A DNA stretch of 45,403 nucleotides from Escherichia phage ECBP5: the sequence record NC_027330.1. The stretch is one strand, 5' to 3'. Each line of letters starts with the position of its first letter. The stretch's first letter is position 1. The notes under the pieces are model-generated. The model was not told where the DNA came from and did not search any database. It worked only from the letters and a program-made list of their open reading frames with translations. Shown in pieces: positions 695-45,403 of this stretch. The translations under genes were made by a program, and so were the position numbers.

Positions 695-1729
695 ATGCAA
701 AACATTAATGACTCTCTGCTGGCTATCATCAAGGGCTTTGACAAGATGACTGTTAAGGCTGCTTGGACTGAGGTTGATGCGCTGGGTGTAGATGTTAGCT
801 CATTGAATACCAAAACCCGTGAGGGCTTTATTACCTCTCTTGACCAGCTGCGCGTAAGCCTGAATGAGGCAGCTGTAGTTGAGGAGGAAGCTACTCTGAT
901 GTCTGAGCTGGATTGCTTAGAGGGTGAGATTAAGGCTACTATCGCTGATGCTGGTAAGGCTACTTTCCACTTAGGCGAGCTGCTGCTGAAAGCTAAAGAT
1001 GCTCACGAAAGCACACCGGACTTTCTGAAGTGGGTAGATGAGAAGTTTGGAATCAAGAAAGCTTGGGCTTATCGCTTGATGAAAGTGGCTAGCGTATTCC
1101 AAGAGGATGCATGGAAAGCAACTGCTGTTGAGGTGCTGTACACCCTGCAATCCCAAGCCACTGACAGCCAGCTTGAGCAAGCCAGAGAGCTGGCTGAGGC
1201 TGGCAAGCTAAACCGCAAGACTCTCTCCGAGCTGCTGGAACCTGTAGCGCCACCAGTTAAACAAGCTGAGCAGCCAGAGCCACAGAGTAGCCAGAAGCTG
1301 CTGCAACAAGCTGCGGACAGCCTGATTGCAAGCGCTGCTGAGCCACAGGAGGCCGCGCCACAGCTGCCAGAGTCTAGTGCACTAGACAGCAAGCCACAGG
1401 AGGATAAAGAAGACTTGATGGAGCTTGTAAGAGATTTACGTGAGCAACTGGCACTACAGCAGCAGCAGAATGCGGAGCTTATGAAGCAAATCACAGAGGC
1501 TAATAAGCCACGCATAGCGGCTAGTAACGCGCCTATGCTGCCTCAGTTCTCTAGCACTTGCATGTACGCCCGTTTAGGGCTGGCTGCTGAGGATGCAGCA
1601 GATAAGGCTAAGATTCTGGAAGCATTCAAGAGCTTGTGTAAGGCTGGCTATGGCCGCCAGCATGAAGCGTATAGCTTGCTTGATGAAGCTCGCCATAAGC
1701 TCATTCACGCTATGGAGGACGCAGCATGA
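695..1729 (+). CDS. Early hypothetical protein with Q/A/P-rich low-complexity central region
   Basis: 344-aa ORF with GAGG-type RBS upstream; no recognised catalytic motif. Confidence 0.7.
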   Translation: MQNINDSLLAIIKGFDKMTVKAAWTEVDALGVDVSSLNTKTREGFITSLDQLRVSLNEAAVVEEEATLMSELDCLEGEIKATIADAGKATFHLGELLLKAKDAHESTPDFLKWVDEKFGIKKAWAYRLMKVASVFQEDAWKATAVEVLYTLQSQATDSQLEQARELAEAGKLNRKTLSELLEPVAPPVKQAEQPEPQSSQKLLQQAADSLIASAAEPQEAAPQLPESSALDSKPQEDKEDLMELVRDLREQLALQQQQNAELMKQITEANKPRIAASNAPMLPQFSSTCMYARLGLAAEDAADKAKILEAFKSLCKAGYGRQHEAYSLLDEARHKLIHAMEDAA

Positions 1730-1911
1730 TTAACGGGAAACTCTATTTCTCAGAAGTTACTCACTGCTATTATCTGGTTAATGGTGATAGCTACCATTAT
1801 TATGAAACTTTTAGAAATACTCTTTGGCAGAAAAGCATTAATAATGCAGCACTTTTATTCTATTCACGAATAGATTTAAGGTTGTTGGGTAACAACTTCA
1901 GGCTTAAGTAA
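1726..1911 (+). CDS. Small hypothetical protein (61 aa)
   Basis: ATGA start/stop overlap with the upstream gene; AT-rich; weak support. Confidence 0.35.
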   Translation: MINGKLYFSEVTHCYYLVNGDSYHYYETFRNTLWQKSINNAALLFYSRIDLRLLGNNFRLK

Positions 1912-1960
1912 CTACTGGCGGCTAGCGATAGCCGCTATCAACTCTTTATAAGGAAATCAG

Positions 1961-4594
1961 ATGTACACTAGCGATGAGCTTTACCAGAAACAACTTGAGC
2001 TAGAAGGGGAGATGCATGGCTACGGTGTTACTCGCTTTGACCGTAACAACCAACGTGCGATTGATAGCGGTACACCTTCAGACACTGATTGGAACCGCCG
2101 TTTACTTTCTAACTTCATTGAGCCTATGGTGAAGGGTATTAATGCTTATAAGGAGTACTACAAGACTAAAGCTGGACGGCCTACAGTGGCTTTAAAGTAC
2201 ATCCGGCAGGTGCAGCCAGAGCAAGCGGCATACATCGCCATTAAGAACATTCTGGATGTGCTGGGTAGTACAACATTTGATGCTAACTGGCTTGTTACCA
2301 CTATTGGGCGTAGGATTGAAGACCAAGTAAGATTTACTAAGCTTGAGGAGGCTGCACCTAAGTATGTAGGCAAGGTTAAGGATAGCTTAGCTAAGCGCAA
2401 CTCTCTCCAGTATGCACACCAGCATAAGGTACTGGTCGCTACTGAGAAGAAGCTAGCGGAGAATCCAGACCGTGCTCAGCTTGAGCTGCCACGCTGGCAG
2501 GAGTGGGCTGAGGAGGATTGCAAGCACGTTGGTAGCTTGCTGGTCAATATCTTTGAGCAGTGTATTCTGTTTGAGGGTGAGCCAGTAATCCGCAAGGAGG
2601 TGCAGACAGTTCGCAAAGGTACACTGGTCTTCATCAAGCCTACTGAGAAAGTTACCAAGTGGATTCATGAGTTCAGAGAGGCTATTGGCGGGCTTGCTCC
2701 AGCTTACGCACCTTGCGTAGTTCCTCCGCTTGATTGGACTTCCCCATTTACTGGCGGGTTCCATACTGAAGCTGTTAGCAGCACTCTACATCTTGCTAAG
2801 GTTCGCAACAAGCGCCACCTGCGCAAGCTGACTAAAGAGCAGATGCCAGCAGTCTACAAGGCTGTAAATAACTTGCAGAAAGTGCGCTGGCGTATCTCTG
2901 AGCGTGTACTGGCAACCGCTAATACACTAGTGGAGCTGGGCTTGCCTTATGCGCTGCCGTCAAAGGATGAAAGCGACTGGAAAGAAAAGAATCCATGCCC
3001 TGTACCTGAGTACCTGCAAGACCTGCGAGGCGAGCAGCTGAAAGCGGCGCTTACTGCCAGCCAGTGGGAGGCTTTTCAAGAGTGGAAACAACTGGCACGC
3101 CAGAACTACGACGAGGAGAGCGAGCGCGTAGCAAGCTTTAGGGAAGTTGTTCGTACTTTAGGGCAGGCTAACCGCTACGTTGGCTTTGATGCAATCTACT
3201 TTGTGTACACGCTGGACTTTCGCGGGCGTGTCTACTGCCAGAGCAGCCTTGTAAGCCCACAGGGTGGCGACTTGCAGAAAGCCCTCATCAAGTTTGCGGA
3301 TGGTATGAAGCTGGGTGAGCGCGGCGAGTACTGGTTCAAGGTGCATGGCGCTAACGAATGGGGCTGGGATAAGAAGACCTTTGATGAGCGCGTAGCTCTG
3401 GTCAGCGAACCTGAGTTCTGCGAGATGTGCCTAGACATTGCCAGTGACCCAGTGACCTTCAATGACTGGATTAAGGCCGATAAGCCGTGGCAGTTCCTCA
3501 ACTGGTGCTTTGAGTATGCTGACTTCCTGAAGCATGTGCAATCAGCTGGCAACCCACAGGACTTTGTAAGCTATATCCCTTGTGCAATGGATGGTTCTTG
3601 CTCTGGCATCCAGCACTACTCTGCAATGCTGCGCGATACTGTTGGCGGTACTGCTGTTAACTTGGTTAACTCTGACAAGCCTAATGACATCTACGGAGAG
3701 GTCTGCAAGGTGACTATTAAAGAGCTGCAAGCAATTGCTGACGGCTCACAGGTATATGACAGCAAGATTGACCCTGTATTAGCTCAGCAGCTGGCGCAGG
3801 AGTGGCTACGTCTGCAACCAAATCGCAGCCTGACCAAGAAACCTGTTATGACCCTGCCTTACGGCAGCACTCAGTTAACCTGCCGTGAGCATGTTAGCCA
3901 GTGGCTTAAAGATTTGCAGAAGGAGGAGAACAAGCGAGCTAAGGCAGAGTTCAGAGAGCCTATGAAGGTACACGCTTTCGGCGATGCAGACAGCGCTATG
4001 CCGCTAAAGTTTGCTGAGTCTCTTATGACTAGCATTGTTTGGCACTCTATCGGCAAGGTTGTAGTAGCTGCGAGGGCTGGTATGGCTTACATCAAAGCCG
4101 TAACAAGCTCAGTGGCTAAGATGAATATGCCGCTTGAGTGGACTACTCCAACAGGCTTTATTGTCCGTCAGGAGATTTACCAGTTCACAACACGTCAGGT
4201 AAATACTCAGCTGCTGGGTGGAACTAAGTTTGTGGTCAGCACTAAGAGTAAAGATATTGATTATCATCGTATGATTAACTCCTGTGCGCCTAACTTTGTT
4301 CACTCAATGGATGCGAGCCACCTTACACTGGCAACTAACTACTTTGCAGATGCAGGTATTAGCAGCATTGCAGTAATCCATGATAGCTTTGGCACACATG
4401 CAGGAGCCACTGACCTGCTGCGTGAGCGTCTGCGAGCTTCAATGGTAGATATGTACGAACAGCATGACGTTATCACTAACTTCCTTGCTGAAACTGAGGG
4501 CAGACTTATGACAGCTTTTGAGCACATTCGAGTGCCAGAGCGTGGTGAGCTGCAACTTGATAGCATTAATCAATCTACATACGCTTTTGCGTGA
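1961..4594 (+). CDS. Single-subunit DNA-directed RNA polymerase (T7 gene 1 homologue)
   Basis: 877 aa; T7 RNAP-like segments DGSCSGIQHYSAMLRD, APNFVHSMDASHL, HDSFGTHA and C-terminal ...YAFA. Confidence 0.95.
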   Translation: MYTSDELYQKQLELEGEMHGYGVTRFDRNNQRAIDSGTPSDTDWNRRLLSNFIEPMVKGINAYKEYYKTKAGRPTVALKYIRQVQPEQAAYIAIKNILDVLGSTTFDANWLVTTIGRRIEDQVRFTKLEEAAPKYVGKVKDSLAKRNSLQYAHQHKVLVATEKKLAENPDRAQLELPRWQEWAEEDCKHVGSLLVNIFEQCILFEGEPVIRKEVQTVRKGTLVFIKPTEKVTKWIHEFREAIGGLAPAYAPCVVPPLDWTSPFTGGFHTEAVSSTLHLAKVRNKRHLRKLTKEQMPAVYKAVNNLQKVRWRISERVLATANTLVELGLPYALPSKDESDWKEKNPCPVPEYLQDLRGEQLKAALTASQWEAFQEWKQLARQNYDEESERVASFREVVRTLGQANRYVGFDAIYFVYTLDFRGRVYCQSSLVSPQGGDLQKALIKFADGMKLGERGEYWFKVHGANEWGWDKKTFDERVALVSEPEFCEMCLDIASDPVTFNDWIKADKPWQFLNWCFEYADFLKHVQSAGNPQDFVSYIPCAMDGSCSGIQHYSAMLRDTVGGTAVNLVNSDKPNDIYGEVCKVTIKELQAIADGSQVYDSKIDPVLAQQLAQEWLRLQPNRSLTKKPVMTLPYGSTQLTCREHVSQWLKDLQKEENKRAKAEFREPMKVHAFGDADSAMPLKFAESLMTSIVWHSIGKVVVAARAGMAYIKAVTSSVAKMNMPLEWTTPTGFIVRQEIYQFTTRQVNTQLLGGTKFVVSTKSKDIDYHRMINSCAPNFVHSMDASHLTLATNYFADAGISSIAVIHDSFGTHAGATDLLRERLRASMVDMYEQHDVITNFLAETEGRLMTAFEHIRVPERGELQLDSINQSTYAFA

Positions 4595-5994: not shown

Positions 5995-6078
5995 GTACTA
6001 GTTTGATAGTACAGTTGTTGAGAGTTATTCTCAGTCTAGTATACTAGACTAGACCGAATCGTACTAGTTGGCTAGTAC
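5995..6078. repeat. Cluster of three short palindromes
   Basis: GTACTAGTTTGATAGTAC, AGTCTAGTATACTAGACT and GTACTAGTTGGCTAGTAC in tandem. Confidence 0.7.
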
Positions 6079-6153: not shown

Positions 6154-6175
6154 TTTAGGCACTACAATAGGGAGC
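6154..6175 (+). promoter_or_regulatory. Phage-RNAP promoter candidate (consensus copy)
   Basis: TTTAGGCACTACAATAGGGAGC; resembles the T7-class promoter layout (CACTA..ATAGG core, +1 G). Confidence 0.6.
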
Positions 6176-6274: not shown

Positions 6275-6313
6275 AGCCCTCTTGAGTGTAGTAGCTCAGG
6301 AGGGCTTTATTTT
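6275..6313 (+). terminator. Rho-independent terminator candidate
   Basis: 12-bp stem AGCCCTCTTGAG/CTCAGGAGGGCT (one mismatch) followed by TTATTTT. Confidence 0.6.
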
Positions 6314-6331
6314 GTCTAGTACACTAGACTG
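6313..6331. repeat. Palindrome AGTCTAGTACACTAGACT family copy
   Basis: GTCTAGTACACTAGACTGG. Confidence 0.7.
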
Positions 6332-6335
6332 GAGA

Positions 6336-6357
6336 CTTAGGCACTCCAATAGATAAC
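6336..6357 (+). promoter_or_regulatory. Phage-RNAP promoter candidate (variant)
   Basis: CTTAGGCACTCCAATAGATAAC; two substitutions relative to consensus. Confidence 0.45.
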
Positions 6358-9541: not shown

Positions 9542-9578
9542 GCCACTTCGGTGGCTTTAGTATAGTGTACTAGACTGG
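9541..9578 (+). terminator. Hairpin with TTCG loop plus partial palindrome-family copy
   Basis: GCCAC-TTCG-GTGGC followed by TTT, then AGTGTACTAGACTGG. Confidence 0.4.
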
Positions 9579-9585
9579 AGTTAAT

Positions 9586-13802: not shown

Positions 13803-14567
13803 ATGTCTTTAGATAACTTTGACTTCGGCGCAGACCTAGCAGAAGCGTCTGGTGTCAAACGAGTAAACCCTGAAGTTGGCTTGCACTTTGCTCGTTTGCG
13901 TAGTGTGATTCACTTAGGCTCAATTGCTGCCATGTACCGTGGAAAGCCAAAGCCACCAGTTAACAAGGCTGCTTTCATCTTTGAACTTAAGGGCGACCTT
14001 GATGAGATTGATGACCTGCACCCTGACAACGGTGAGCCATTGTGCATCGGCATCGGGGTTAACCTTACCAAAGGTGACAATGCCAAGCTCACAGAAGTTA
14101 TGGCAGCTCTCATCTCTAAGAAGGAGATGGAGGAAGGTACTGTCAAAGGTATGGATGACCTGATTGGTCGTGTCTGCCAGCTTGACCTGAAGGGCAGTGA
14201 TGCCAAGGGTGATGACGGTAAGCCTAAGTACGTTGACATCAAATCACTCAGCCCTGTGGCTAAGGCATTCGCCGCACAGATTCCTGAGCTGTCAGTAGCT
14301 GGCGTAGGTCACTGCCGCCTGTCTCAGCTGTCTATGGCTGCGATGGATGAGCTGAACGTGTTCCTCGATGTCCAAGAGGGCATCATGAAATCTGAGGAGT
14401 GGAAAGCAGGAACGCACCCAGCAATCGCTCTGGTAGAGGAAATCCGCAAGGAGCGTCCGAACTATGCCAAGGCTGAGAAGAAGTCTGACAAAGGCGCTGA
14501 CGAGCCACAGGGCGAGCAGGAGCCGTCTAAGCCAGCTGAGCAGATGAACACCGATGAGGAGTTCTAG
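13803..14567 (+). CDS. Putative ssDNA-binding protein (T7 gp2.5-like by size and tail); acidic C-terminus ending in Phe
   Basis: AGGAGAAAC RBS before ATG 13803; C-terminus ...EQEPSKPAEQMNTDEEF; N-terminal DNFDFGA motif shared with the exonuclease; SSB call is an inference. Confidence 0.6.
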   Translation: MSLDNFDFGADLAEASGVKRVNPEVGLHFARLRSVIHLGSIAAMYRGKPKPPVNKAAFIFELKGDLDEIDDLHPDNGEPLCIGIGVNLTKGDNAKLTEVMAALISKKEMEEGTVKGMDDLIGRVCQLDLKGSDAKGDDGKPKYVDIKSLSPVAKAFAAQIPELSVAGVGHCRLSQLSMAAMDELNVFLDVQEGIMKSEEWKAGTHPAIALVEEIRKERPNYAKAEKKSDKGADEPQGEQEPSKPAEQMNTDEEF

Positions 14568-14609
14568 TCTAGTACACTAGACTGAAGCCGTACTAGTTAG
14601 CTAGTACGG
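14564..14609. repeat. Two adjacent palindromes (family copies)
   Basis: TCTAGTCTAGTACACTAGACTGA and CCGTACTAGTTAGCTAGTACGG. Confidence 0.7.
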
Positions 14610-16889: not shown

Positions 16890-18013
16890 TGATGACTAAG
16901 ATGACTGAGAAGCAGCTTAAGGAGTGCCTTGTAGCTAAGATGACAACCAGTGAGATTGCTGAGAAGTTTGGCTTATCTCACAGGGCTGTTCAAATTCGCA
17001 AGGCAGCTTTAGCTAAGAAAGGCTACAGCCCTGAGCATGACATGGTGCATCAGGTTCCTGAGGGCTTCTTGCTTAAGGGTCAGTCAACCTTATATGGTAA
17101 GGATGGGGATGTTAAGCTGACTTGGGTTAAGTCATCTATTGACCGTGACAAGCAGCTTGAGCTACTGCGTGAGTTCATTGCTGGCATGGGTGATGACCTT
17201 CCTCGTGAGCTTCCAGTTACCTGTGGTGGTGTAGGTAGTGATGACCTGTTAAACCAGTTCACTATCACTGACTATCACTTAGGTATGCTGGCATGGGATG
17301 AGGAGTCTGGTGACAATTGGGATATGAAGATTGCAACTGACCTAATCCTCAAGTGGTTCCAAGAGGCTATCCGCTGTAGTCCTATGGCTAAGACAGCTGT
17401 GCTGGCTCAGCTTGGTGACTTCTTGCATTGGGATGGGCTGGATGCAGTTACCCCAAGTAGCGGTCATGTACTTGATGCGGACACACGCTTCCAGAAGCTG
17501 GCTCGTGCTGCCATCTACATCACAAGAGCTGTGATTAAGATGCTGCTTGAGAAGCATGAGAAAGTTCATGTTGTCTTTGCAGAGGGTAATCATGATATGG
17601 CTAGCTCAATCTGGATGCGTGAGTTCCTTACAGTGATGTATGAGGATGAACCTCGTATTACCATTGACCAGAGTCCAGACCCTTATTATTGCTATGTGCA
17701 TGGTGATACTACGTTGTTCTACCATCACGGCCATAAGAAGAAGATGGAGCAGTTGTCTGATGTGTTCGCTGCTAAGTTCCGTAGTGAGTGGGGTGCTAGT
17801 AAATATTCCTATGCTCACGTAGGTCACTTGCATCATCACAAAGTGATTGAAAGCCCACTGATGAAGGTAGAGCAGCATCAGACTCTGGCAGCTAAGGATG
17901 CTTATGCAAGCCGTGGTGGTTGGCTTAGCAAGCGAGCTGCTACTGTAATCACTTACCATAAGAAGTTTGGGGAAGTATGTAGGGCTACCATCACACCAGA
18001 GATGGTAAGTTAG
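16889..18013 (+). CDS. Calcineurin-like metallophosphoesterase with N-terminal HTH-like segment
   Basis: Metallophosphoesterase motif series DYH, GDFLHWD, GNHD, HHGH, GHLHHH; N-terminal TSEIAEKFGLSHRAVQIRKAALAKKG. Confidence 0.75.
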   Translation: MMTKMTEKQLKECLVAKMTTSEIAEKFGLSHRAVQIRKAALAKKGYSPEHDMVHQVPEGFLLKGQSTLYGKDGDVKLTWVKSSIDRDKQLELLREFIAGMGDDLPRELPVTCGGVGSDDLLNQFTITDYHLGMLAWDEESGDNWDMKIATDLILKWFQEAIRCSPMAKTAVLAQLGDFLHWDGLDAVTPSSGHVLDADTRFQKLARAAIYITRAVIKMLLEKHEKVHVVFAEGNHDMASSIWMREFLTVMYEDEPRITIDQSPDPYYCYVHGDTTLFYHHGHKKKMEQLSDVFAAKFRSEWGASKYSYAHVGHLHHHKVIESPLMKVEQHQTLAAKDAYASRGGWLSKRAATVITYHKKFGEVCRATITPEMVS

Positions 18014-18029
18014 AAACTACAATAGGACT
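18009..18029 (+). promoter_or_regulatory. Phage-RNAP promoter candidate (variant)
   Basis: GTTAGAAACTACAATAGGACT overlapping the upstream stop codon. Confidence 0.45.
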
Positions 18030-18052: not shown

Positions 18053-18640
18053 ATGAAAGACACTTATATCTTTGACTTGGATGGTACATTAGCTTGCGGT
18101 AAACACCGCTTGCATCTGCTCCCAACTAAGGATACTGCACACCGTACAGAAGCTTGGGATAGTTTCAATCTTGCTGCTGGTGGTGATTCTCCAATCCTTG
18201 ACAACATCCGACTGATGAATGAATTGTTCCAGTTTGGTAAGCGTATCATCATCCTGTCTGGTCGTTGTGATGTAGCTAAGGCTATTACTGAGAAGTGGCT
18301 GTGGGAACATGGCTGTAACTTCAATCAGCTTATTATGCGCCCAGCAGCTGACCATCGTCGTGATATTGAGTTCAAGGAAGAGAAGCTGCGTGATATTGGC
18401 CTTGAGCGAATTGTAGCTTGCTTTGATGACCTTGAGCATGTTGCCAAGCACATCCGTAGCTTGGGTGTTACTTGTCATCTTGTCACTCACTACGACACTA
18501 ATTGTGTGTCAGTGAGCCAACATGTTCGCTACCCTGAGCCAAAGACTGATGATGATAACTTGTGGGATACAGAGGAAGGTGCAACTTTCAATGAAGGTTA
18601 TAACCAAGCTATTGAAGACACCAAGGAGCTTAATAAATGA
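18053..18640 (+). CDS. HAD-family phosphatase resembling the 3'-phosphatase domain of T4 polynucleotide kinase
   Basis: HAD motif I FDLDGTL; ILSGR, KEEKL and DDLEHV segments parallel the T4 Pnk phosphatase domain. Confidence 0.8.
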   Translation: MKDTYIFDLDGTLACGKHRLHLLPTKDTAHRTEAWDSFNLAAGGDSPILDNIRLMNELFQFGKRIIILSGRCDVAKAITEKWLWEHGCNFNQLIMRPAADHRRDIEFKEEKLRDIGLERIVACFDDLEHVAKHIRSLGVTCHLVTHYDTNCVSVSQHVRYPEPKTDDDNLWDTEEGATFNEGYNQAIEDTKELNK

Positions 18641-19203
18641 TTGTAATTCTTAATGCTCCACCGGCATCTGGTAAAGATACCATTGGAGGAATCTTAGCTG
18701 ACTGGCATGGCTGGAAAGCTCTTAGCTTCAAGAAGCCTATGTTTGACTTAGCTAAGTCTCTACTAGGTGAAGAGAAGTATGCACAGTTCCTTGAGTTGTA
18801 CAATGACCGCAGCACTAAGGACAAGCCTACTAGTCTTTGTGGTGGGCTGTCACCTCGTGACTTCTTCATCCATATCTCTGAGAAGATGTGCAAGCCACTG
18901 TTTGGTGAACAATACTTTGGTGAGCGCTTCCTTGAGCTGGTTAGCAATGAGGTAACTACTGTAGTTACTGATGGCGGCTTCCCTCAGGAAGTTCGTCCAA
19001 TGCTGGATGCAGGTCATAAGGTTGTTATTGTACGCTTGTTCCGCAAGGGCTATGACTTCTCTAATGACTCACGCCGCTACTTAACTGAGCAGGATTTCTC
19101 AGACTTGCCAACCTTCCGTAGCCCTTCATTCCTTGATGTTGAGCTTACAGAGGGTCATCCTTATCGTGCAGCTGATTACATCTTTAATAAGCTAGAGGGT
19201 TAA
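18637..19203 (+). CDS. P-loop nucleotide/polynucleotide kinase (T4 dNMP kinase-like)
   Basis: P-loop NAPPASGKDT resembles T4 gp1 dNMP kinase SGKDT; ATGA overlap with the phosphatase gene. Confidence 0.7.
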   Translation: MIVILNAPPASGKDTIGGILADWHGWKALSFKKPMFDLAKSLLGEEKYAQFLELYNDRSTKDKPTSLCGGLSPRDFFIHISEKMCKPLFGEQYFGERFLELVSNEVTTVVTDGGFPQEVRPMLDAGHKVVIVRLFRKGYDFSNDSRRYLTEQDFSDLPTFRSPSFLDVELTEGHPYRAADYIFNKLEG

Positions 19204-19204
19204 T

Positions 19205-20158
19205 ATGAACGTATTTGAGTTCCTTGGCTACCCAGCTGACCACCGACCTAAGAGCAAGGTTGTGCAGCTGGTTAAGCATTGGGATGAAGTACCTGAAAGC
19301 CGTAAGCAGTATCCGTATTATGCGCAGGTCAAGAAAGACGGTGTGTTTGGTATTGTTGTGGTAACTAAAGATGATGATGGCAACATTGCTGTTTCTGTCT
19401 TCGGTCGCACAGGTGAGCAGCTCAGTAACACTGAGGCAATCTGCTCACGCTTCCTTGAAGGTTACATTGCTGAGGGCATCTACATTGGAGAGGTGCTTAC
19501 TCAATCTCCATGTAGCCTTGAGGAGCTGTCAGGTATCCTCAACCCTAATCGTGTCAATAAGCTGGACATCAATCAGGAAGTTATCAAGTGGAACTTGTAC
19601 ATTGCTCTGCATGATTGCTTAACTGAAAAGATGTTCATAGCTGGCACATCAGCTGGCATCAGCTACCACACACGCCACGCTAGCTTGATGAAGCGTATTG
19701 CAGGTACTGACCTAGAGGAAAGCGCACTACCTTACACAGTCATTCACGATGACAAGCAGAAGGAACAGTTCACTAAAGCTTGCATTGCTGCTGGGGAGGA
19801 GGGTGCAGTCTACAAGCGTCCTGGCTGTGAGTGGGAAGCTGGTCATAAAGGCTGGCATCAGATGAAGGAAGTACGTGAGGTAACGTATGACCTAAAGTGT
19901 GTAGGCTACGAGGAAGGGTCAGGCAAGTACAAAGGAAAGGTCGCTAACCTTATCTTCCAATGGAGAGATGGTGAGTCTATTAAGGCCATGCTTGGTAAGG
20001 GCTATACCCACAAGGATGCTGAAGATATGTTCAATGACCCAAGCTTGTTTATGCATAAGGTCTTCCGTATTCGTGGCCTGCAAGATAGTAGCAAAGGCAA
20101 GATTAGATTACCTAAAGTACAAGAGGAACGTTATGACAAAGTTACCGGAGATTATTAG
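19205..20158 (+). CDS. ATP-dependent DNA ligase
   Basis: Ligase motif I KKDGV, motif IV EGAVYK, motif V WHQMKEV. Confidence 0.9.
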   Translation: MNVFEFLGYPADHRPKSKVVQLVKHWDEVPESRKQYPYYAQVKKDGVFGIVVVTKDDDGNIAVSVFGRTGEQLSNTEAICSRFLEGYIAEGIYIGEVLTQSPCSLEELSGILNPNRVNKLDINQEVIKWNLYIALHDCLTEKMFIAGTSAGISYHTRHASLMKRIAGTDLEESALPYTVIHDDKQKEQFTKACIAAGEEGAVYKRPGCEWEAGHKGWHQMKEVREVTYDLKCVGYEEGSGKYKGKVANLIFQWRDGESIKAMLGKGYTHKDAEDMFNDPSLFMHKVFRIRGLQDSSKGKIRLPKVQEERYDKVTGDY

Positions 20159-20513
20159 TAGACGCTTTAACGTTATTACGGGTAAGGAAGTGCCATTGGG
20201 CTGCATGGATGAGGATTACCCTCGTGCAAGTGGTCGCACAACTGGCATTGCACTACGTGCCATCTCTGACACCATTCTAACTGGTGTACCTGTGTTTGTC
20301 ACAGACCATGATGACTACCCAAGCTGTTATACCGAGCATTCAGCTAAGCTACTTGCTGGTCGTATTCGCGCACTAGCTGAACAGATGAATCTTAATGGCA
20401 TTGAGGTTGAAGCTGTCAGCACACCTCAGCGCAGGTTGAATGGCTCTTATGTATGGGGCGCACAAGTTAGCTTCCATTTGCATCAGGAAGTCACGTATGA
20501 CCTTCGCAAGTAA
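20133..20513 (+). CDS. Hypothetical protein (126 aa)
   Basis: AAGAGGAA RBS before ATG 20133; ORF-track start at 19968 lies inside the ligase gene. Confidence 0.55.
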   Translation: MTKLPEIISRRFNVITGKEVPLGCMDEDYPRASGRTTGIALRAISDTILTGVPVFVTDHDDYPSCYTEHSAKLLAGRIRALAEQMNLNGIEVEAVSTPQRRLNGSYVWGAQVSFHLHQEVTYDLRK

Positions 20514-20673
20514 GCAGCAAGCTATGGAGTTTGCCATCAACACTTTTGTAGATGGTAATCAACTCACATCAGCTGAGCAGGAAGCTGTTCAAGCTGCTGG
20601 TGTTAACATCAAACAGGTAGAGGACTATGTTAGACAAGCACTCGGTTCCAACGAGCCTGAAGGAGAGGATTAG
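20497..20673 (+). CDS. Small hypothetical protein (58 aa)
   Basis: AGGAAG RBS 6 nt before ATG 20497. Confidence 0.4.
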   Translation: MTFASKQQAMEFAINTFVDGNQLTSAEQEAVQAAGVNIKQVEDYVRQALGSNEPEGED

Positions 20674-20857
20674 TGATGATGAGTACCCGAATCCTAAAAA
20701 CCCTACTGCTCTTGATTTACCTACATACTCCTTCTTGGATGACGCACTACGTACCCCGACAACTAACTACCGTTCGGAGATGCATGAGTTCATCCGTAAG
20801 GAAGTCATACAAGAACTACGAGGGATTATCTTCTCATGCCTCAAATTCCGCAAGTAA
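20627..20857 (+). CDS. Hypothetical protein (76 aa)
   Basis: Protein-like composition; overlaps neighbouring ORFs in a different frame. Confidence 0.4.
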   Translation: MLDKHSVPTSLKERISDDEYPNPKNPTALDLPTYSFLDDALRTPTTNYRSEMHEFIRKEVIQELRGIIFSCLKFRK

Positions 20858-21297
20858 GAGATGCAGGCCACCTAGACCTGCTTATACTAGCAAGCCTTGC
20901 TAATGAGTACGCGCAAGAAGTTACTGAGATGAAACAGCATCCGGTGGACGCGAATGTACTCATGCATGGATTGGCAGCTACCATAGGTAATCCAACTGGA
21001 TACCTGAAGGTCTTAACAGTTGATGGTAAAGTGGTAGGTGGCTTTTGGGGTTGCTTAACCCATATGCCTTGGTCAGCAACCTTAGTTGCACAGGACATTA
21101 TCATCTTTGTTAATAAGGACTTCAGGGGCTATGGTAGGCTGCTGATAGATGACTGGCTCAAGTGGGCTAAGTCAGTGGGCGCAAAGGAAGTGTGCCTTAG
21201 CACAGCCTCAGGTATTGCAACAGAAACTACCTGCAAGCTGTTTGAAAGATTAGGATTCCGAAAAGTAGGCTATATGTATTCTAAGGAGGTTACATGA
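20836..21297 (+). CDS. GNAT-family N-acetyltransferase
   Basis: Acetyl-CoA-binding-like segment VNKDFRGYGRLLIDDWLKWAK; 153 aa. Confidence 0.65.
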   Translation: MPQIPQVRDAGHLDLLILASLANEYAQEVTEMKQHPVDANVLMHGLAATIGNPTGYLKVLTVDGKVVGGFWGCLTHMPWSATLVAQDIIIFVNKDFRGYGRLLIDDWLKWAKSVGAKEVCLSTASGIATETTCKLFERLGFRKVGYMYSKEVT

Positions 21298-21500
21298 GCA
21301 TGAGTAAACCTAAGGTTCCAGCATACAACCCGCCAGCTGCTAAGCCTGAGCGTCAGGTTGATGTTGAGCCTGAGGATGTACAGTTGGGTGATGCAGCAAG
21401 TCAAGACCCAACAAAGAAAGGTAAGCGCGCCCTTATGCGCCCTAGTGGTGCTATGAGTGGTGCAAACGCTGGTGGCAGTGGTGCAGGCTTAGCAGTCTAA
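21294..21500 (+). CDS. Small Gly/Ala-rich protein (68 aa), possible virion-associated protein
   Basis: AAGGAGG RBS; sits directly upstream of the portal gene. Confidence 0.5.
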   Translation: MSMSKPKVPAYNPPAAKPERQVDVEPEDVQLGDAASQDPTKKGKRALMRPSGAMSGANAGGSGAGLAV

Positions 21501-21509
21501 GGAGGGCTT

Positions 21510-23102
21510 ATGAGAGGGTATAGCCCTATCATCACTAAGGGTGGTGATGTTCCTTATATGAACAATCGCATGAAGGTTAAGGAAGAATCTGGCAAGCCAA
21601 AGTCAACCCTAGCTGAGCGATATAAAACCCTCTCAGCTAAGAGGGAGACACAGCTTTCACGAGCTAAGATGTATGCAAAGATTACCCTGCCAGCTCTGTT
21701 CACTGAAGACCAGAGTACTGACCAAGGTGATGCATATACTCAGAATAGCTGGCAGAGCTTAGGTGCGCAGGGTGTTAACCATCTGGCTAACAAGTTGGTT
21801 ATGACTTGGTTCCCGCCACAGCGTTCCTTCTTTAAGCTAGAGTTTACAGATGAGGCTAAGCAGGCTCTATACGATACTGGTACAGATGACGTTGAATTAC
21901 TCAGTATCATGGCTAGGGCTGAGAACAAAGCTAGACTTCTGCATGAACAAATCCAAGGACGCATTGCATGGACACAAGCTGCTAAGCATTTAATTGTAGC
22001 TGGCAATGCTATGCTCTATGCACCAGTTAATGACAGTCTTGTATGTTATCCGATGGATAAGTATGTAGTTAAACGTTCAAAGACTGGACGTGTAACTCAG
22101 ATGATTCTGGAGGAAGTTAAGTGCTTGAGTGAGTTCCCTCCAGCTGTTCAGGCTATCATCAAGGCTAAGAGGTTTAACCTTAAGCAAGATGATACTGTTG
22201 AGTTGTACACACAAGCTAAGTGGGATGGTAGTATGTATGTCATCACACAGGAAGCTGTGGATACTACAATAGGGAAGGAATACCGAGTCAAGCCTGAGGA
22301 GTCACCATTCATCGTCCTGACTTGGGAACGTCTGTATGGAGAGGACTATGGTCGTGGCTTAGTAGAATCTTGCTACGGCGACTTATTCACTTACGCTTTC
22401 CTGTCTAAAGCTGTTGCTAAAGGTTGTGCGCTTATGTCAGAGGTTAAATTCCTCGTCAAGCGCGGTTCAGCCACTTCACCAACTGCACATGCTAAAGCCG
22501 AAACAGGTGATTATGTATGGGGAGAGGAGGGTGATGTAAGTGTTGTACAGCTAGAGAAGTATGGTGATTACCAGACAGTCTTATCAGTTCTTGAAACATA
22601 CTCTAAGCGACTAGGTCAGGCATTCCTTCTGGCATCTGCTAACCGCAGGGATGCAGAGCGAGTGACAACCTATGAGCTGCGTATGGATGCAATGGAGCTG
22701 GAGACATCATTAGGTGGAACCTATTCTCAGATTGCTGTATCAGGTCAGCTACCTTATGCTAACCTGTTGCTCCAGCGCTCTGGCTTTAAGCTCCCTGCTA
22801 CTGATGCTGTACCAATCATTATCACAGGTATTGAGGCGCTAGGTAAAGCTGGTGAGCTTGATAAGCTTATGCAGCTGTCAGAGATGATGGCAATCCCTAA
22901 TAGCTGGTCGACAGCTGCACAGGAGCGCATCAAGTGGTCTGACTATATCGCATTCATCGCAGCTAACCTTAACATGGAGACTAGTTGGCTGATGACTGAA
23001 GATGAGTACAACAAGATGAAGCAGGCACAGCAACAGCTAATGCAGCAACAGCAACTTATGGAAGCTGCTGGTAAAGCTGCCCCACAAATGATGAAACAAT
23101 AA
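21510..23102 (+). CDS. Head-tail connector (portal) protein (T7 gp8-like)
   Basis: 530 aa; SWQSLGAQGVNHLANKLVM parallels T7 gp8 PWQAVGARGLNNLASKLML; TAAGGAGGG RBS. Confidence 0.9.
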   Translation: MRGYSPIITKGGDVPYMNNRMKVKEESGKPKSTLAERYKTLSAKRETQLSRAKMYAKITLPALFTEDQSTDQGDAYTQNSWQSLGAQGVNHLANKLVMTWFPPQRSFFKLEFTDEAKQALYDTGTDDVELLSIMARAENKARLLHEQIQGRIAWTQAAKHLIVAGNAMLYAPVNDSLVCYPMDKYVVKRSKTGRVTQMILEEVKCLSEFPPAVQAIIKAKRFNLKQDDTVELYTQAKWDGSMYVITQEAVDTTIGKEYRVKPEESPFIVLTWERLYGEDYGRGLVESCYGDLFTYAFLSKAVAKGCALMSEVKFLVKRGSATSPTAHAKAETGDYVWGEEGDVSVVQLEKYGDYQTVLSVLETYSKRLGQAFLLASANRRDAERVTTYELRMDAMELETSLGGTYSQIAVSGQLPYANLLLQRSGFKLPATDAVPIIITGIEALGKAGELDKLMQLSEMMAIPNSWSTAAQERIKWSDYIAFIAANLNMETSWLMTEDEYNKMKQAQQQLMQQQQLMEAAGKAAPQMMKQ

Positions 23103-24008: not shown

Positions 24009-24030
24009 ATTAGGCACTACAATAGGAGAA
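24009..24030 (+). promoter_or_regulatory. Phage-RNAP promoter candidate (consensus copy) driving the capsid gene
   Basis: ATTAGGCACTACAATAGGAGAA. Confidence 0.6.
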
Positions 24031-25219: not shown

Positions 25220-25250
25220 TGCCCCGTCCTCTTGGATGGGGCTTATTTTT
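25220..25250 (+). terminator. Rho-independent terminator (T-phi-like, after capsid gene)
   Basis: GCCCCGTCC-TCTT-GGATGGGGC hairpin followed by TTATTTTTG. Confidence 0.7.
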
Positions 25251-39046: not shown

Positions 39047-39325
39047 ATGCCACGTAATATTACTGGTGATTCACCTAAGTCTGTACAAACTCAGTCCGTA
39101 TCTATGCTGCCAGTGGCTATTGTCACTCAGGCAAACTTGGCTAGCGCAGCTCACCCTATCAACGATACTACCAAGTCTGGCAAGCAAGTTGGTGGTCTGG
39201 TCTACGTTAAGCTGACTACTGGTGGTAATGTCTGCATCGCAATTGCTCAGGGTTCTGGCGCTACTGATAAGTGGCTGGTACTTGGCATGGATGCTGCTGG
39301 CTTCATTGAAGTAACACCAGCTTAA
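39047..39325 (+). CDS. Hypothetical protein (92 aa)
   Basis: AAGGAGA RBS. Confidence 0.55.
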   Translation: MPRNITGDSPKSVQTQSVSMLPVAIVTQANLASAAHPINDTTKSGKQVGGLVYVKLTTGGNVCIAIAQGSGATDKWLVLGMDAAGFIEVTPA

Positions 39326-39335
39326 TAAGGTTGGT

Positions 39336-39356
39336 CAGTCTAGTACGCTAGACTGG
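39336..39356. repeat. Palindrome family copy, terminator-like
   Basis: CAGTCTAGTACGCTAGACTGG followed by CCTCTTTCT. Confidence 0.6.
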
Positions 39357-39368
39357 CCTCTTTCTACT

Positions 39369-40855: not shown

Positions 40856-42484
40856 ATGGCTAAACTTACAAGAGTAACGGACGCATTTGTGTACGTTAAG
40901 TCTAAATTAGCTGGAGCAATCCAGCGACTGTTAGAAGACAAGATGACTGACACTCTATCCATTAAGGATTTTGGTGCAGTCGGAGATGGTGTGCATGATG
41001 ACACAGATGCAATCATTGCAGCCTTCGCAGCTGCTAAGAACAAGTTTGGGGTCATTGCACCCTCAGGCCGTTATCGTGTAACCAGAGAGATTCCAGTCGA
41101 TTATGCACTGGTACTTATCGGGGAAGGTGGGAATGGCTTTAAGGGTACAAACTCAAGCCACAATCCATCGCCTCACTTTGGCACTACCTTTGTAAGTGAC
41201 ATGGCTAGTGGATACGTGTTCAATATCTCACCTGCTGCTTTCCAGTTTGGTCTTACCTTGCGTGACTTCTCTATCGAGCGTAACGAGTCATTAGGTATCA
41301 ACAATGCACGAGGTATGAGACTACATAATGTAGGGTGGACTGGTATCGTAGACAACGTGTGTATTGATGGCTTCTGGGAACATGGCTTGGTTATTGGTTA
41401 TATCCAAGATACACACTTCCGAGGCTGTACGGTATTACGTTGTGGTAATGAAGATGTGCCTAGTATTGAGATTGTTAATGACTCAAACTACGTATACTTC
41501 TTAAACTGCCATATCGAGTATTCTCCGTTCCTGTTCAAGAATACTGGCAATGCTTGGGAAGTTCACTTCACAAATAACCACTTTGAAGTTGCACAGTACG
41601 GCTCTAGCTCTGGTCTGCCTACCTTGAAGTATAAGCAAGCTCCGCTACAGCTTGGTGGTGGCAACATGGTTACTTTCAATACTTGTACAATTGTACCAGT
41701 ATCTGATGAGTATCTTCAGACTGCCCTTGGCATACCGTTTGACTCTTTACCATATTTCATTACTGGCTCGGGTTCATTCGTCAAGTTCATCAACTGCTCT
41801 GGTATTGCGCCAGAAGGTTCTGTCAGCTACATGTACCTAACAGGTACTGGTAATAAGGTACTTGGTGGCACATGGAAAGACATGACACCTAGGCGCCCTA
41901 GTATTGTCCTTGAAGATGGTGACATTGCTAATAACACATTAGCTATCCGTGTAGCTGCTGATGAGACAAAGCTGTACGGTGTCTTAGTCAATACTCGTGG
42001 CAAGATTACTGATAACTTGTTAACTGCATCAGGTACAGCGTCTACTACACGCAGAACTACTGGCATCCTTGTTGGATGTAGCCCTAGTGCGCCATTAGGA
42101 GCTGTTCAAGTTAGTGGTAACACTTATGACCTTGGTAATAGACCTAACCGCTATGTCTACCATCGTATTCAGATCAGTGGTCATGATGGAGGCTGCTCTT
42201 ACTTTGAGGGTATTAATGCCGCATTGTTTGACTTGGACTATGAGCTTTATAACCCTGCTGCAAACTTTGCTATGTGGAATACAACCTCATGGCAAGTGAC
42301 CAGTCAGGTCAATATGAATCCAGGACGTGTAGTAATGTTCCACGCAGGTGCAATAGCTGGATTTATTAATTACAGTGCATATGTAAAGAATGCTACGTTT
42401 AATAACCTTGCAGTAGAAGCTGGTGCATCTATTATGTACAAAGGCATCTCTGACGGTGAAGCAAGGATGTTCCAAGTTAAGTAA
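40856..42484 (+). CDS. Tailspike with pectate-lyase-like beta-helix domain (putative polysaccharide depolymerase)
   Basis: IKDFGAVGDGVHDDTDAIIAAF is a pectate-lyase-type beta-helix N-cap signature; 542 aa. Confidence 0.85.
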   Translation: MAKLTRVTDAFVYVKSKLAGAIQRLLEDKMTDTLSIKDFGAVGDGVHDDTDAIIAAFAAAKNKFGVIAPSGRYRVTREIPVDYALVLIGEGGNGFKGTNSSHNPSPHFGTTFVSDMASGYVFNISPAAFQFGLTLRDFSIERNESLGINNARGMRLHNVGWTGIVDNVCIDGFWEHGLVIGYIQDTHFRGCTVLRCGNEDVPSIEIVNDSNYVYFLNCHIEYSPFLFKNTGNAWEVHFTNNHFEVAQYGSSSGLPTLKYKQAPLQLGGGNMVTFNTCTIVPVSDEYLQTALGIPFDSLPYFITGSGSFVKFINCSGIAPEGSVSYMYLTGTGNKVLGGTWKDMTPRRPSIVLEDGDIANNTLAIRVAADETKLYGVLVNTRGKITDNLLTASGTASTTRRTTGILVGCSPSAPLGAVQVSGNTYDLGNRPNRYVYHRIQISGHDGGCSYFEGINAALFDLDYELYNPAANFAMWNTTSWQVTSQVNMNPGRVVMFHAGAIAGFINYSAYVKNATFNNLAVEAGASIMYKGISDGEARMFQVK

Positions 42485-43033: not shown

Positions 43034-43486
43034 CTAGTGGCTGGTCAGGCAGCTGCTGTGAGCTGGCTAGGTGGCTTACGGATAGCCGATTGTGAGCAGC
43101 CAGTGAGCCGCTGTGGGCTTCAGCTCCGCTGTGGCTACGGTTGGCTTGCCAGTGGCTTGAGGCGCTCTGTGAGCTGCTGAGGGCTGTGGCTTGCTGTACT
43201 CGTGTGCTAGTACGCTGCTGTGTGTATCTGTCTTTAGTCTGATGGGCTACTGTCTTTAGTTTGCTGCACCACTGGTAGCTTATTGGGTAGCTCATAGGTA
43301 GCTTACAAGGCTCACAGCTTGCTGGTACTACTGAGGGCTTACTAGGTAGCTTGCTATCACTGACTAGGTAGCTGCTGTTAGTTCACTAGGTAGCTAGCTA
43401 TGGCTTACTAGGTAGTTACTAGGTGGATTGATGTAAGCTTACTCAAGCTCTCTCTTAGTGCATCATTCGATGCACAATATAAGAAG

Positions 43487-43510
43487 AATAAGACACTACA
43501 ATAAGAATAG
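43487..43510 (+). promoter_or_regulatory. Phage-RNAP promoter-like motif (variant) near presumed left end
   Basis: AATAAGACACTACAATAAGAATAG. Confidence 0.4.
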
Positions 43511-43588
43511 AGTACGCCTTGCCAACAGCTCTCATGAGCTATCTAGGTGGCTTACTATCACTTACATCCAACTAACTAGGAGGCTTAC

Positions 43589-45192: not shown

Positions 45193-45403
45193 ATGAGCAG
45201 GGAATTATCTTTAAGGTTTAATGAATCTAATAAGCGCATGGATGCATTGCTAAGTGCAATGAATAGGGCTAACCCTCTATCAGTAGAGTATGAGGAGCTT
45301 AGTAAAATGGCTCACAGCGAGTTGCAAACAATGCAAGCTATTAACAACAGCTCATTGCAACAACTAGAAATGCACTGGACAACCTCAGGTGACTTTAGCC
45401 ACC
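45193..45403 (+). CDS. Early hypothetical protein, 5' portion (continues at 1..234 across the wrap-around)
   Basis: ATG at 45193 one base after the upstream stop; open to the window end. Confidence 0.5.
   Translation, partial: MSRELSLRFNESNKRMDALLSAMNRANPLSVEYEELSKMAHSELQTMQAINNSSLQQLEMHWTTSGDFSH
45196..45403. repeat. Exact duplicate of 1-208
   Basis: Identical to window start. Confidence 0.9.

Follow-up and report, generated by a model that had tools for sequence, protein, structure and literature searches.

The gene and its family

In the genome of Escherichia phage ECBP5 (NC_027330.1), a gene for a GNAT-fold N-acetyltransferase of 153 amino acids occupies positions 20836..21297 of the plus strand, from its ATG start through its stop codon. 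The window that we analysed is the whole record of 45,403 nucleotides. Exact 208-bp direct terminal repeats stand at both ends (bases 1-208 = 45196-45403), so that the record is a linear phage genome in its entirety and its unit length comes to 45,195 bp; all large open reading frames (ORFs) are carried by the plus strand, and the phage is SP6-like. An earlier note on this DNA, made from its letters, had called a GNAT acetyltransferase at exactly this place. The gene occupies a slot that is conserved across phages of the T7 supergroup, directly before a small tail protein gene and the portal gene. We favour, though only tentatively, the reading that its product is a small, soluble, probably non-virion, acetyl-CoA-dependent N-acetyltransferase that would acetylate protein for host takeover, in the manner of Rac (gp28 of phage LUZ19).

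The PHROG 1249 profile, named 'acetyltransferase', matches residues 3-151 with its positions 6-156 of 180 (E=3.1e-37), which makes the protein a full-length member of that family, and the only other PHROG matched is phrog_3810. K1E gp27 and ICBM2 gp38 are placed in PHROG 1249 too. Among Pfam models, PF00583 (Acetyltransf_1) scores 24.5 bits, above its gathering threshold of 20.7, and PF13508 scores 24.7 bits, under its cutoff of 27. Full-length homologues are present in 222 genome records of phages, and 1,199 representative protein clusters also contain one at E<=1e-3. The ratio of nonsynonymous to synonymous substitution rates (dN/dS) of the gene is 0.046 against its orthologue in Pectobacterium phage PP99 and 0.13 against that of an Edwardsiella phage, close to the 0.03-0.04 of the portal gene, and we conclude from these values that the gene evolves under purifying selection. 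Given the PHROG and Pfam scores, the 222 phage records and the dN/dS values, the identification lies far beyond chance, and the ORF is a real gene.

This identification is already known. The orthologue in PP99, orf35, is 98.7% identical in amino acid sequence and is annotated 'acetyltransferase', and the same label stands on the counterparts in K1E (gp27), Pm5460, phi-A318, Njord, CB5A and others; the annotation is already in use throughout the SP6-like phages. Beyond PP99, identity to the orthologues (K1E gp27 and K1-5 gp27 among them) is about 28-57%. They share with the ECBP5 gene its length of ~150 amino acids, its annotation and its position (ligase, small ORFs, GNAT, a gp7.3-like ORF of ~60 amino acids, portal), and nothing of substance sets them apart. 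The paper describing PP99 makes no mention of the gene.

Predicted fold and active site

We modelled the protein with AlphaFold2 from a family alignment of 146 diverse representatives, mostly 24-40% identical to the query, and obtained a mean predicted local distance difference test score (pLDDT) of 96.7 and a predicted template-modelling score (pTM) of 0.90. The elements of the model are strand 5-9, helices 14-28 and 39-50, strands 55-62, 65-76 and 83-92, helix 94-113, strand 118-120 and helix 129-138, which gives the topology beta1-alpha1-alpha2-beta2-beta3-beta4-alpha3-beta5-alpha4, the GNAT order. A Foldseek search of the PDB returned 434 matches at E<=1e-3, the best 50 of which are all GNATs, with query-normalised template-modelling (TM) scores of 0.66-0.78; they include AAC(3)-I-like enzymes, DpA, AAC(6')-Iy, a RimI-like enzyme, SSAT and GNA1. 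The family profile, run against the PDB, matched 73 sequences at E<=1e-3; among the 60 listed, practically every one is a GNAT-type acetyltransferase. The ORF thus encodes a GNAT-superfamily fold, and structure prediction bears out the class that the earlier note had proposed.

That note had also pointed to an acetyl-CoA-binding-like segment, FRGYGRLLIDDWLKWAK. This comprises residues 96-112 (codons at 21121..21171, plus strand) and lies at the junction of beta4 and alpha3, taking in both the loop for the pyrophosphate of acetyl-CoA and helix alpha3 (GNAT motif A). In PDB 4h89, the residues aligned with D95-F96-R97-G98-Y99-G100 are RGRGVG, its acetyl-CoA pyrophosphate loop. Of the motif A loop, Q/R-x-x-G-x-G/A, the G-x-G core is kept and the leading Q/R is replaced by Asp; we count the loop as present. 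Across the 146 representatives the most conserved positions include G68 (99%), R97 and G140 (97% each), D/E87 (94% acidic) and W110 (93%), followed by D14, L103 and G126 (88% each), E28 (84%), R8 (82%) and G98 (77%).

The best PDB sequence match of the family profile is DpA (8a9o; E=6.7e-13, 52 bits), the 1,3-diaminopropane/polyamine N-acetyltransferase of Acinetobacter baumannii (PDB 8A9O/8A9N; PMC10267138), whose structure matches our model with a TM score of 0.77. Both are single-domain proteins of ~150 amino acids. The acceptor pocket of DpA is formed by Y21, Y25, Y65, D80, D81 and E116 together with the catalytic Tyr (PMC10267138), and in the profile alignment D87 of the ECBP5 protein corresponds to D81, Q86 to D80 and Y25 to Y21, with E28 adjoining the position of DpA Y25. 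From this alignment we infer that the acceptor pocket contains acidic residues that are conserved, and that it would fit a cationic amine. The two proteins differ in that identity is ~23%, in that DpA is a cellular rather than a phage protein, and at two pocket positions, where E116 is replaced by S122 and the catalytic Y128 by F136.

The second of these replacements concerns the mechanism. Helix alpha4 carries a catalytic Tyr in DpA (Y128), SSAT (Y140) and SpeG (Y134) (PMC10267138), and in the ECBP5 protein the place of this general acid is taken by F136. Position 136 is Tyr in 55% and Phe in 27% of the family, and it varies among Y, F, T and I even in close relatives. The Y128F variant of DpA is described as 'catalytically impaired' and still forms product (PMC10267138). 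Taking F136 together with that impaired but active variant, the ECBP5 protein may work slowly or may draw on a different proton donor; a Ser or Thr stands at position 125 in 88% of the family, and its use as the alternative donor is speculation on our part. The same replacement could mean that the protein is a catalytically weak or inactive GNAT fold whose function, in assembly or in regulation, lies in binding, as may hold for gp7 of phage T7. The variability of position 136 would fit such a role, as would the model of T7 gp7, which is GNAT-like yet lacks alpha4 and any motif detectable by Pfam. Against it, the residues of the acetyl-CoA loop are among the most conserved of the family, DpA still makes product with Phe at this position, and a Tyr general acid is wanting in many GNATs. 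We regard a largely non-catalytic role as very unlikely.

Subfamily assignment

For assignment to a named subfamily we used the curated cutoffs of the NCBIfam models, and we also ran a PADLOC scan. The best NCBIfam match, Sat3, scores 32.1 bits against a cutoff of 360, followed by ArsN1a (18.3 against 170) and AAC(6') group E (13.2 against 140). None of the AAC, Sat, ArsN, RimI, SpeG or toxin models comes near its threshold, no curated polyamine-acetyltransferase model is matched, and the PADLOC scan returned zero matches. We accordingly rejected membership in the RimI and SpeG families and in any named resistance or toxin family. A role in DNA hypermodification was set aside as well, the full gene list of PP99 being free of thymidylate-synthase and hydroxymethylase-type genes.

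The earlier note had offered, as one option, a toxin that acetylates aminoacyl-tRNA. Such an enzyme, of the TacT/AtaT type, would stop host translation. In common with TacT, AtaT and ItaT, the ECBP5 protein is a small stand-alone GNAT on a mobile element, and Rac, which occupies the analogous slot, inhibits growth of its own host (PMC7552054). The rest of the evidence disfavours this option. No RHH/DUF1778-type antitoxin is found among the ORFs upstream (20440-20673 and 20627-20857), which lack Pfam domains and match PHROGs whose function is unknown, and the neighbour downstream is a gp7.3-type gene. The protein is near neutral (isoelectric point (pI) 6.9, net charge -0.2; 69% of the family have a pI below 7), where those toxins are basic, and neither the best 60 sequence matches nor the best 50 fold matches include a named toxin structure. 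The catalytic Tyr of the toxins is replaced by F136; PDB 6gtr is AtaT Y144F, an inactive mutant, whose mutated residue we take to be equivalent in position to F136. With PADLOC empty as well, the toxin-antitoxin reading is rejected as extremely improbable.

A more serious alternative is that the enzyme acetylates a small polycationic amine, either a polyamine of the putrescine, spermidine or cadaverine type or a compound like an aminoglycoside or streptothricin. It would then lower polyamine charge, which might serve, for example, to tune DNA condensation and packaging or to counter inhibition of phage growth by polyamines or antibiotics. DpA as the top sequence relative is followed by streptothricin, phosphinothricin and aminoglycoside acetyltransferases; AAC(3)-I-like enzymes, DpA, AAC(6')-Iy and SSAT lead the Foldseek matches at TM scores of 0.74-0.78; Sat3 heads the NCBIfam matches; and the pocket residues D/E87 and Y25 align with D81 and Y21 of DpA. 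Residues 139-153 of our monomer model lack strand pairing despite a pLDDT of 89-95, which is what might be expected of a strand-swapped dimer such as those of DpA, SSAT and AAC(6')-Iy. The curated cutoffs, however, are far from reached (the SpeG and AAC models fail along with Sat3), the catalytic Tyr is Phe here and is kept in just 55% of the family, S122 aligns with E116 of DpA, and sequence similarity among GNATs predicts the acceptor poorly. This alternative also leaves the tight and conserved coupling to the gp7.3-type and portal genes unexplained, and the searchable literature yielded no phage polyamine acetyltransferase. We consider it possible but doubtful.

Gene order and transcription

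Immediately downstream, an ORF of 68 amino acids (21294..21500, plus strand) overlaps the GNAT gene, the stop codon of the one and the ATG of the other sharing the sequence ATGA at 21294-21297. The ORF matches phrog_9033, and its product has a proline-rich N-terminus and a C-terminus (...KKGKRALMRPSGAMSGANAGGSGAGLAV) in which a basic cluster is followed by a G-rich L/I-x-V/I end; the C-terminal stretch includes DPTKKGKRALMRP. The C-terminal motif ...KKGKRALMRP...GAGLAV of the ECBP5 product recurs in K1E gp28, Pm5460 gp33, phi-A318 gp28, LUZ19 gp29, 17A gp19 and T7 gp7.3. On these sequence features, and drawing also on PMC5520035, we assign the product as a gp7.3-type tail-plug (nozzle-plug) or ejection protein; its counterparts in PP99, K1E and others are labelled 'hypothetical'. 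In T7, the C-terminal loop 84-98 of gp7.3 anchors six copies of the protein in the tail nozzle, with K84 and K85 touching the end of the DNA (PMC11784390).

The portal (head-tail connector) gene, at 21510..23102 on the plus strand (PF12236 Head-tail_con, E=3.1e-58; PP99 orf37), is the first large structural gene downstream, and the scaffold and then the capsid genes lie 3' of it. The GNAT gene was said earlier to sit just upstream of the portal gene. It does precede the portal gene, but it is not adjacent to it, being separated by the one small gene of 68 amino acids. Upstream, a gene for a PNKP-type HAD phosphatase (18053-18640) is followed by an ORF of 188 amino acids at the position of the deoxynucleoside monophosphate kinase of PP99 (18637-19203) and by the gene for an ATP-dependent DNA ligase (19205-20158). 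Between the ligase and GNAT genes stand three or four small ORFs with no assigned function. The last of them, of 76 amino acids (20627..20857, plus strand; phrog_35369, of unknown function; PP99 orf34), overlaps the start of the GNAT gene by 22 nucleotides.

Nine copies of a repeat with the core TTAGGCACTACAATAGGA (allowing up to 3 mismatches) occur in the genome, all on the plus strand, at 6155, 6337, 13415, 14612, 14758, 18010, 24010, 38285 and 43489, where 0.03 matches would be expected by chance. Most of the copies lie directly upstream of genes. From their likeness to SP6-type promoters and their intergenic positions, they probably mark promoters of the phage RNA polymerase. The nearest copy upstream of the GNAT gene is TTAGAAACTACAATAGGA at 18010..18027 and the next stands directly before the major capsid gene, at 24010..24027 (both plus strand), with no copy between 18010 and 24010. 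The GNAT gene is therefore probably co-transcribed with the late DNA-metabolism genes as well as with the portal and scaffold genes. After the capsid gene, at 25221-25242, stands a strong terminator-like hairpin. These results qualify the earlier description of the locus as a boundary between the replication and structural modules. The GNAT gene does come after the DNA-metabolism genes and before the portal, scaffold and capsid genes, but no promoter break coincides with this change; the boundary is one of gene content, without a detected promoter.

A conserved slot in the T7 supergroup

Some 20 loci, annotated or metagenomic, were scored for gene order. Gajwadongvirus, Molineuxvirinae, Colwellvirinae, Krylovirinae and Ghunavirus all keep the order GNAT, gp7.3-like, portal, scaffold, capsid, and in PP99, K1E, Pm5460, phi-A318, Njord, CB5A, Vc1 and one Edwardsiella phage the GNAT gene comes after the ligase gene and small ORFs and directly before a gp7.3-like ORF of ~60 amino acids and the portal gene. 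Metagenomic relatives at ~35-38% identity have the five-gene order too. In Ghunavirus, the gh-1-like group of T7-like Pseudomonas phages, the order is gp6.7-like, GNAT, gp7.3-like, portal. In Krylovirinae the slot is filled by a different GNAT family (Rac in LUZ19, with MR8 and phi-2, and JG068 according to its own paper). In all, GNAT-fold genes of three PHROG families (1249, 3986 and 2746) occupy the same slot across the T7 supergroup. Distant members of the ECBP5 family (~26-33% identity) lie on short contigs, and because their neighbours cannot be identified, the linkage to the portal gene is shown only for the Autographiviridae-type core of the family. The record of Vibrio phage Vc1 (KJ502657) is filed under Drexlerviridae; at positions 1050-4496 of the locus examined, its GNAT, gp7.3-like, portal, scaffold and capsid genes form a module of the Autographiviridae type, and for this reason its taxonomy line looks wrong.

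In 10 of the 12 phages examined, representing five lineages, the stop codon of the GNAT gene overlaps the start of the next gene. This coupling raises the possibility that the enzyme acetylates a phage protein during assembly, chiefly the coupled gp7.3-type protein (at its N-terminus or at the DNA-contacting lysines of its KGKR cluster) or another ejection protein, and thereby alters tail assembly, infectivity or host range. Several further observations would fit. In two Zobellviridae, a PHROG 1249 homologue lies between a tail protein and annotated internal virion proteins; a basic peptide would go well with the conserved acidic residues of the acceptor pocket; the fold and sequence matches include RimI-like and Naa30 N-terminal acetyltransferases; and the T7 slot holds gene 7, labelled 'host range', whose product gives a GNAT-like model. 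On the other side, the paper on the electron cryomicroscopy structure of T7 models only residues 84-98 of gp7.3, mentions no acetylation of it and does not contain the word 'acetyl' (PMC11784390). Adjacency may merely reflect first place in the late cluster, and Rac works in the host with no other phage protein present (PMC7552054). Moreover, a phenotype of T7 gene 7 could not be documented from the searchable literature. On balance we judge a virion-protein substrate unlikely.

T7 gene 7 itself (PHROG 2746; NC_001604, 1831-2232 of the T7 locus examined) lies between gp6.7 and gp7.3, ahead of the portal gene, in the slot of the ECBP5 GNAT. Its product is shorter, at 133 amino acids, and has no Pfam match, no clear acetyl-CoA loop and, in its model, no alpha4. 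The AlphaFold model is GNAT-like up to beta5-beta6, and Foldseek returned 223 PDB matches for it at E<=1e-3, the top 50 of which are all GNATs. The best model has a pLDDT of 92 and the other four about 70, so that the proposed homology rests mainly on one confident model from a 12-sequence alignment. Profile comparisons with hhalign are weak but collinear (for the Rac family E=0.0018, for the ECBP5 family 9e-4), and PHROG cross-matches stand at about 1e-5. T7 gp7 is probably a degenerate GNAT, which we offer as a lead rather than a result.

There is also a bolder version of the virion-protein proposal. The GNAT and gp7.3-type genes would form one functional unit conserved across Autographiviridae, in which the enzyme acetylates the nascent tail-plug or ejection protein at its N-terminus or KGKR lysines, and so sets tail assembly, DNA retention or infectivity; T7 gene 7 would then be a degenerate relic and the host effect of Rac a side branch. 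We consider this scenario quite unlikely.

Other features of the genome

Over the 4.2-kb region around the GNAT gene, the genome is ~94% identical in nucleotide sequence to PP99 (Autographiviridae, Gajwadongvirus), of which ECBP5 is a distinct relative. Relatives with 93-95% identity over the compared region have been recorded on Klebsiella, Vibrio cholerae and Pseudomonas as well as on Pectobacterium. An ORF of 877 amino acids (1961-4594, plus strand) corresponds in size to the 2,634-nucleotide RNA polymerase gene annotated in PP99. The tail spike of 542 amino acids (40856-42484) has a pectate-lyase-like beta-helix (PF12708, phrog_4217), and that of PP99 is annotated differently, as a putative deacetylase. 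The tail-spike difference and the varied hosts of the relatives suggest swapping of receptor modules or doubtful host labels.

A second gene with an acetyltransferase label, an ORF of 92 amino acids at 39047-39325, is the counterpart of PP99 orf49 and K1E gp42, which are annotated 'acetyl-CoA acetyltransferase'. Its sole match is the PHROG of that name (2725); it has neither a thiolase nor a GNAT Pfam domain and is much too short for a thiolase. We therefore rejected a link to the GNAT gene, and the label is probably a propagated misannotation, unrelated to it.

Five copies of a palindromic element, GTCTAGTACACTAGAC, lie at intergenic-looking sites (6030-6054, 6310-6339, 9556-9580, 14563-14592 and 39334-39363) and could be RNA-processing hairpins or terminators. 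Near the right end, at 43050-43572, short direct repeats with 22-nucleotide spacing (families D3 and D4) surround ...CTAGGTAGCT..., and this cluster recalls the repeat arrays close to the genome ends of T7-group phages.

Comparison with Rac and the proposed role

Rac (PHROG 3986) is the only studied occupant of the GNAT slot. Expressed alone in Pseudomonas aeruginosa, it causes the alpha subunit of RNA polymerase to be cut at Q244-E245, an effect that needs the predicted acetyl-CoA-pocket residues and is accompanied by a rise in lysine acetylation (PMC7552054). The two proteins belong to the same superfamily and are of similar size, and the slot is the same, in that a GNAT gene overlapping a small virion protein gene, and followed by portal, scaffold and capsid genes, is the last before the structural genes. 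The slots differ upstream, where the Rac gene of phiKMV-like phages follows the RNA polymerase gene and the ECBP5 gene follows the ligase gene. Additionally, AcrVA5 is cited in PMC7552054 as a prophage GNAT that acetylates Lys635 of Cas12a. As described by that citation, it is a phage-borne mini-GNAT that neutralises a host protein through lysine acetylation, and we draw on it as a functional analogy only, its genomic context being different. The searchable literature offered nothing usable on anti-defence phage GNATs.

On the reading that we favour, the phage RNA polymerase would probably transcribe the gene in a unit running from the promoter-like site at 18010 that also holds the last DNA-metabolism genes, the gp7.3-type gene, the portal gene and the scaffold gene, and translation of the GNAT would be coupled to that of the gp7.3-type gene. 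The protein is predicted to bind acetyl-CoA through the beta4-alpha3 loop (R97-G98-Y99-G100) and to pass the acetyl group to a primary amine in a pocket lined by Y25, E28 and D87. The likeliest acceptor would be a lysine or an N-terminal amine of a protein in the infected cell, and the enzyme may serve, like Rac, in a post-translational modification by which the phage takes over its host in mid-to-late infection. Our analysis shows the ORF, its fold and conservation, the synteny and the promoter context; that the protein uses acetyl-CoA, what class of acceptor it has, when it acts and what it does in infection are inferred. The GNAT is probably not a virion protein, since the reported virion proteins of phage phiPsa17 include gp6.7 and gp7.3 and omit the GNAT of the gene-7 slot (PMC4517105).

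Several points weigh against this reading. By sequence, fold and NCBIfam matches, the nearest solved relatives are mostly small-molecule acetylators, and F136 stands in place of the catalytic Tyr of DpA, SSAT and SpeG. The model offered by Rac is itself incomplete and narrow: neither its protease nor its direct substrate is identified and its LKA1 homologue leaves alpha uncleaved (PMC7552054), and growth of Pseudomonas putida is unaffected by it (PMC11794488). Kinship between the two proteins is also remote. Compared by hhalign, the two families share 116 collinear columns (94.8%, E=5e-8), which is what any two GNAT families give, and a direct BLASTP comparison yields E=0.2. Scored with the hidden Markov model (HMM) of the ECBP5 family, Rac proteins reach 5-15 bits, against 52 bits for DpA, and the Rac-family HMM gives ECBP5-family proteins between -2 and 16 bits. 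The Rac profile consists of 6 sequences, the homologue search for Rac having given one cluster, and within that alignment a D-x-H-V-G motif (DDxHVGPC) between beta3 and beta4 is invariant, at a place where the ECBP5 family is gapped in the hhalign alignment. The BLASTP result, the cross-scores of at most 16 bits and the missing motif lead us to reject the ECBP5 protein as a member or orthologue of the Rac family, and the relationship is at superfamily level only. The shared slot reflects either extreme divergence in place or replacement by another GNAT. Since the effect of Rac is genus- and host-specific, its particular target cannot be transferred to the ECBP5 protein. Finally, no experimental study of any PHROG 1249 member turned up in the searchable literature. 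As no curated subfamily threshold is reached either, the earlier statement that the target is unknown stands.

Significance

Identification of the gene as a GNAT in itself adds nothing to current annotation, dozens of SP6-like phages being labelled alike. What the present analysis adds is the intervening gp7.3-type gene with its stop/start overlap, the module boundary without a promoter, the Phe at the position of the catalytic Tyr, the exclusion of the named subfamilies and of the toxin reading, and the presence of three PHROG families in one slot. Purifying selection has kept a GNAT-fold gene directly before a gp7.3-type gene and the portal gene in at least five lineages of the T7 supergroup, a group of phages widely used in therapy and biotechnology. 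Knowing the acceptor would show whether acetylation is a general step of host takeover or of virion maturation in these phages, and it might account for the long-standing 'host range' label of T7 gene 7.

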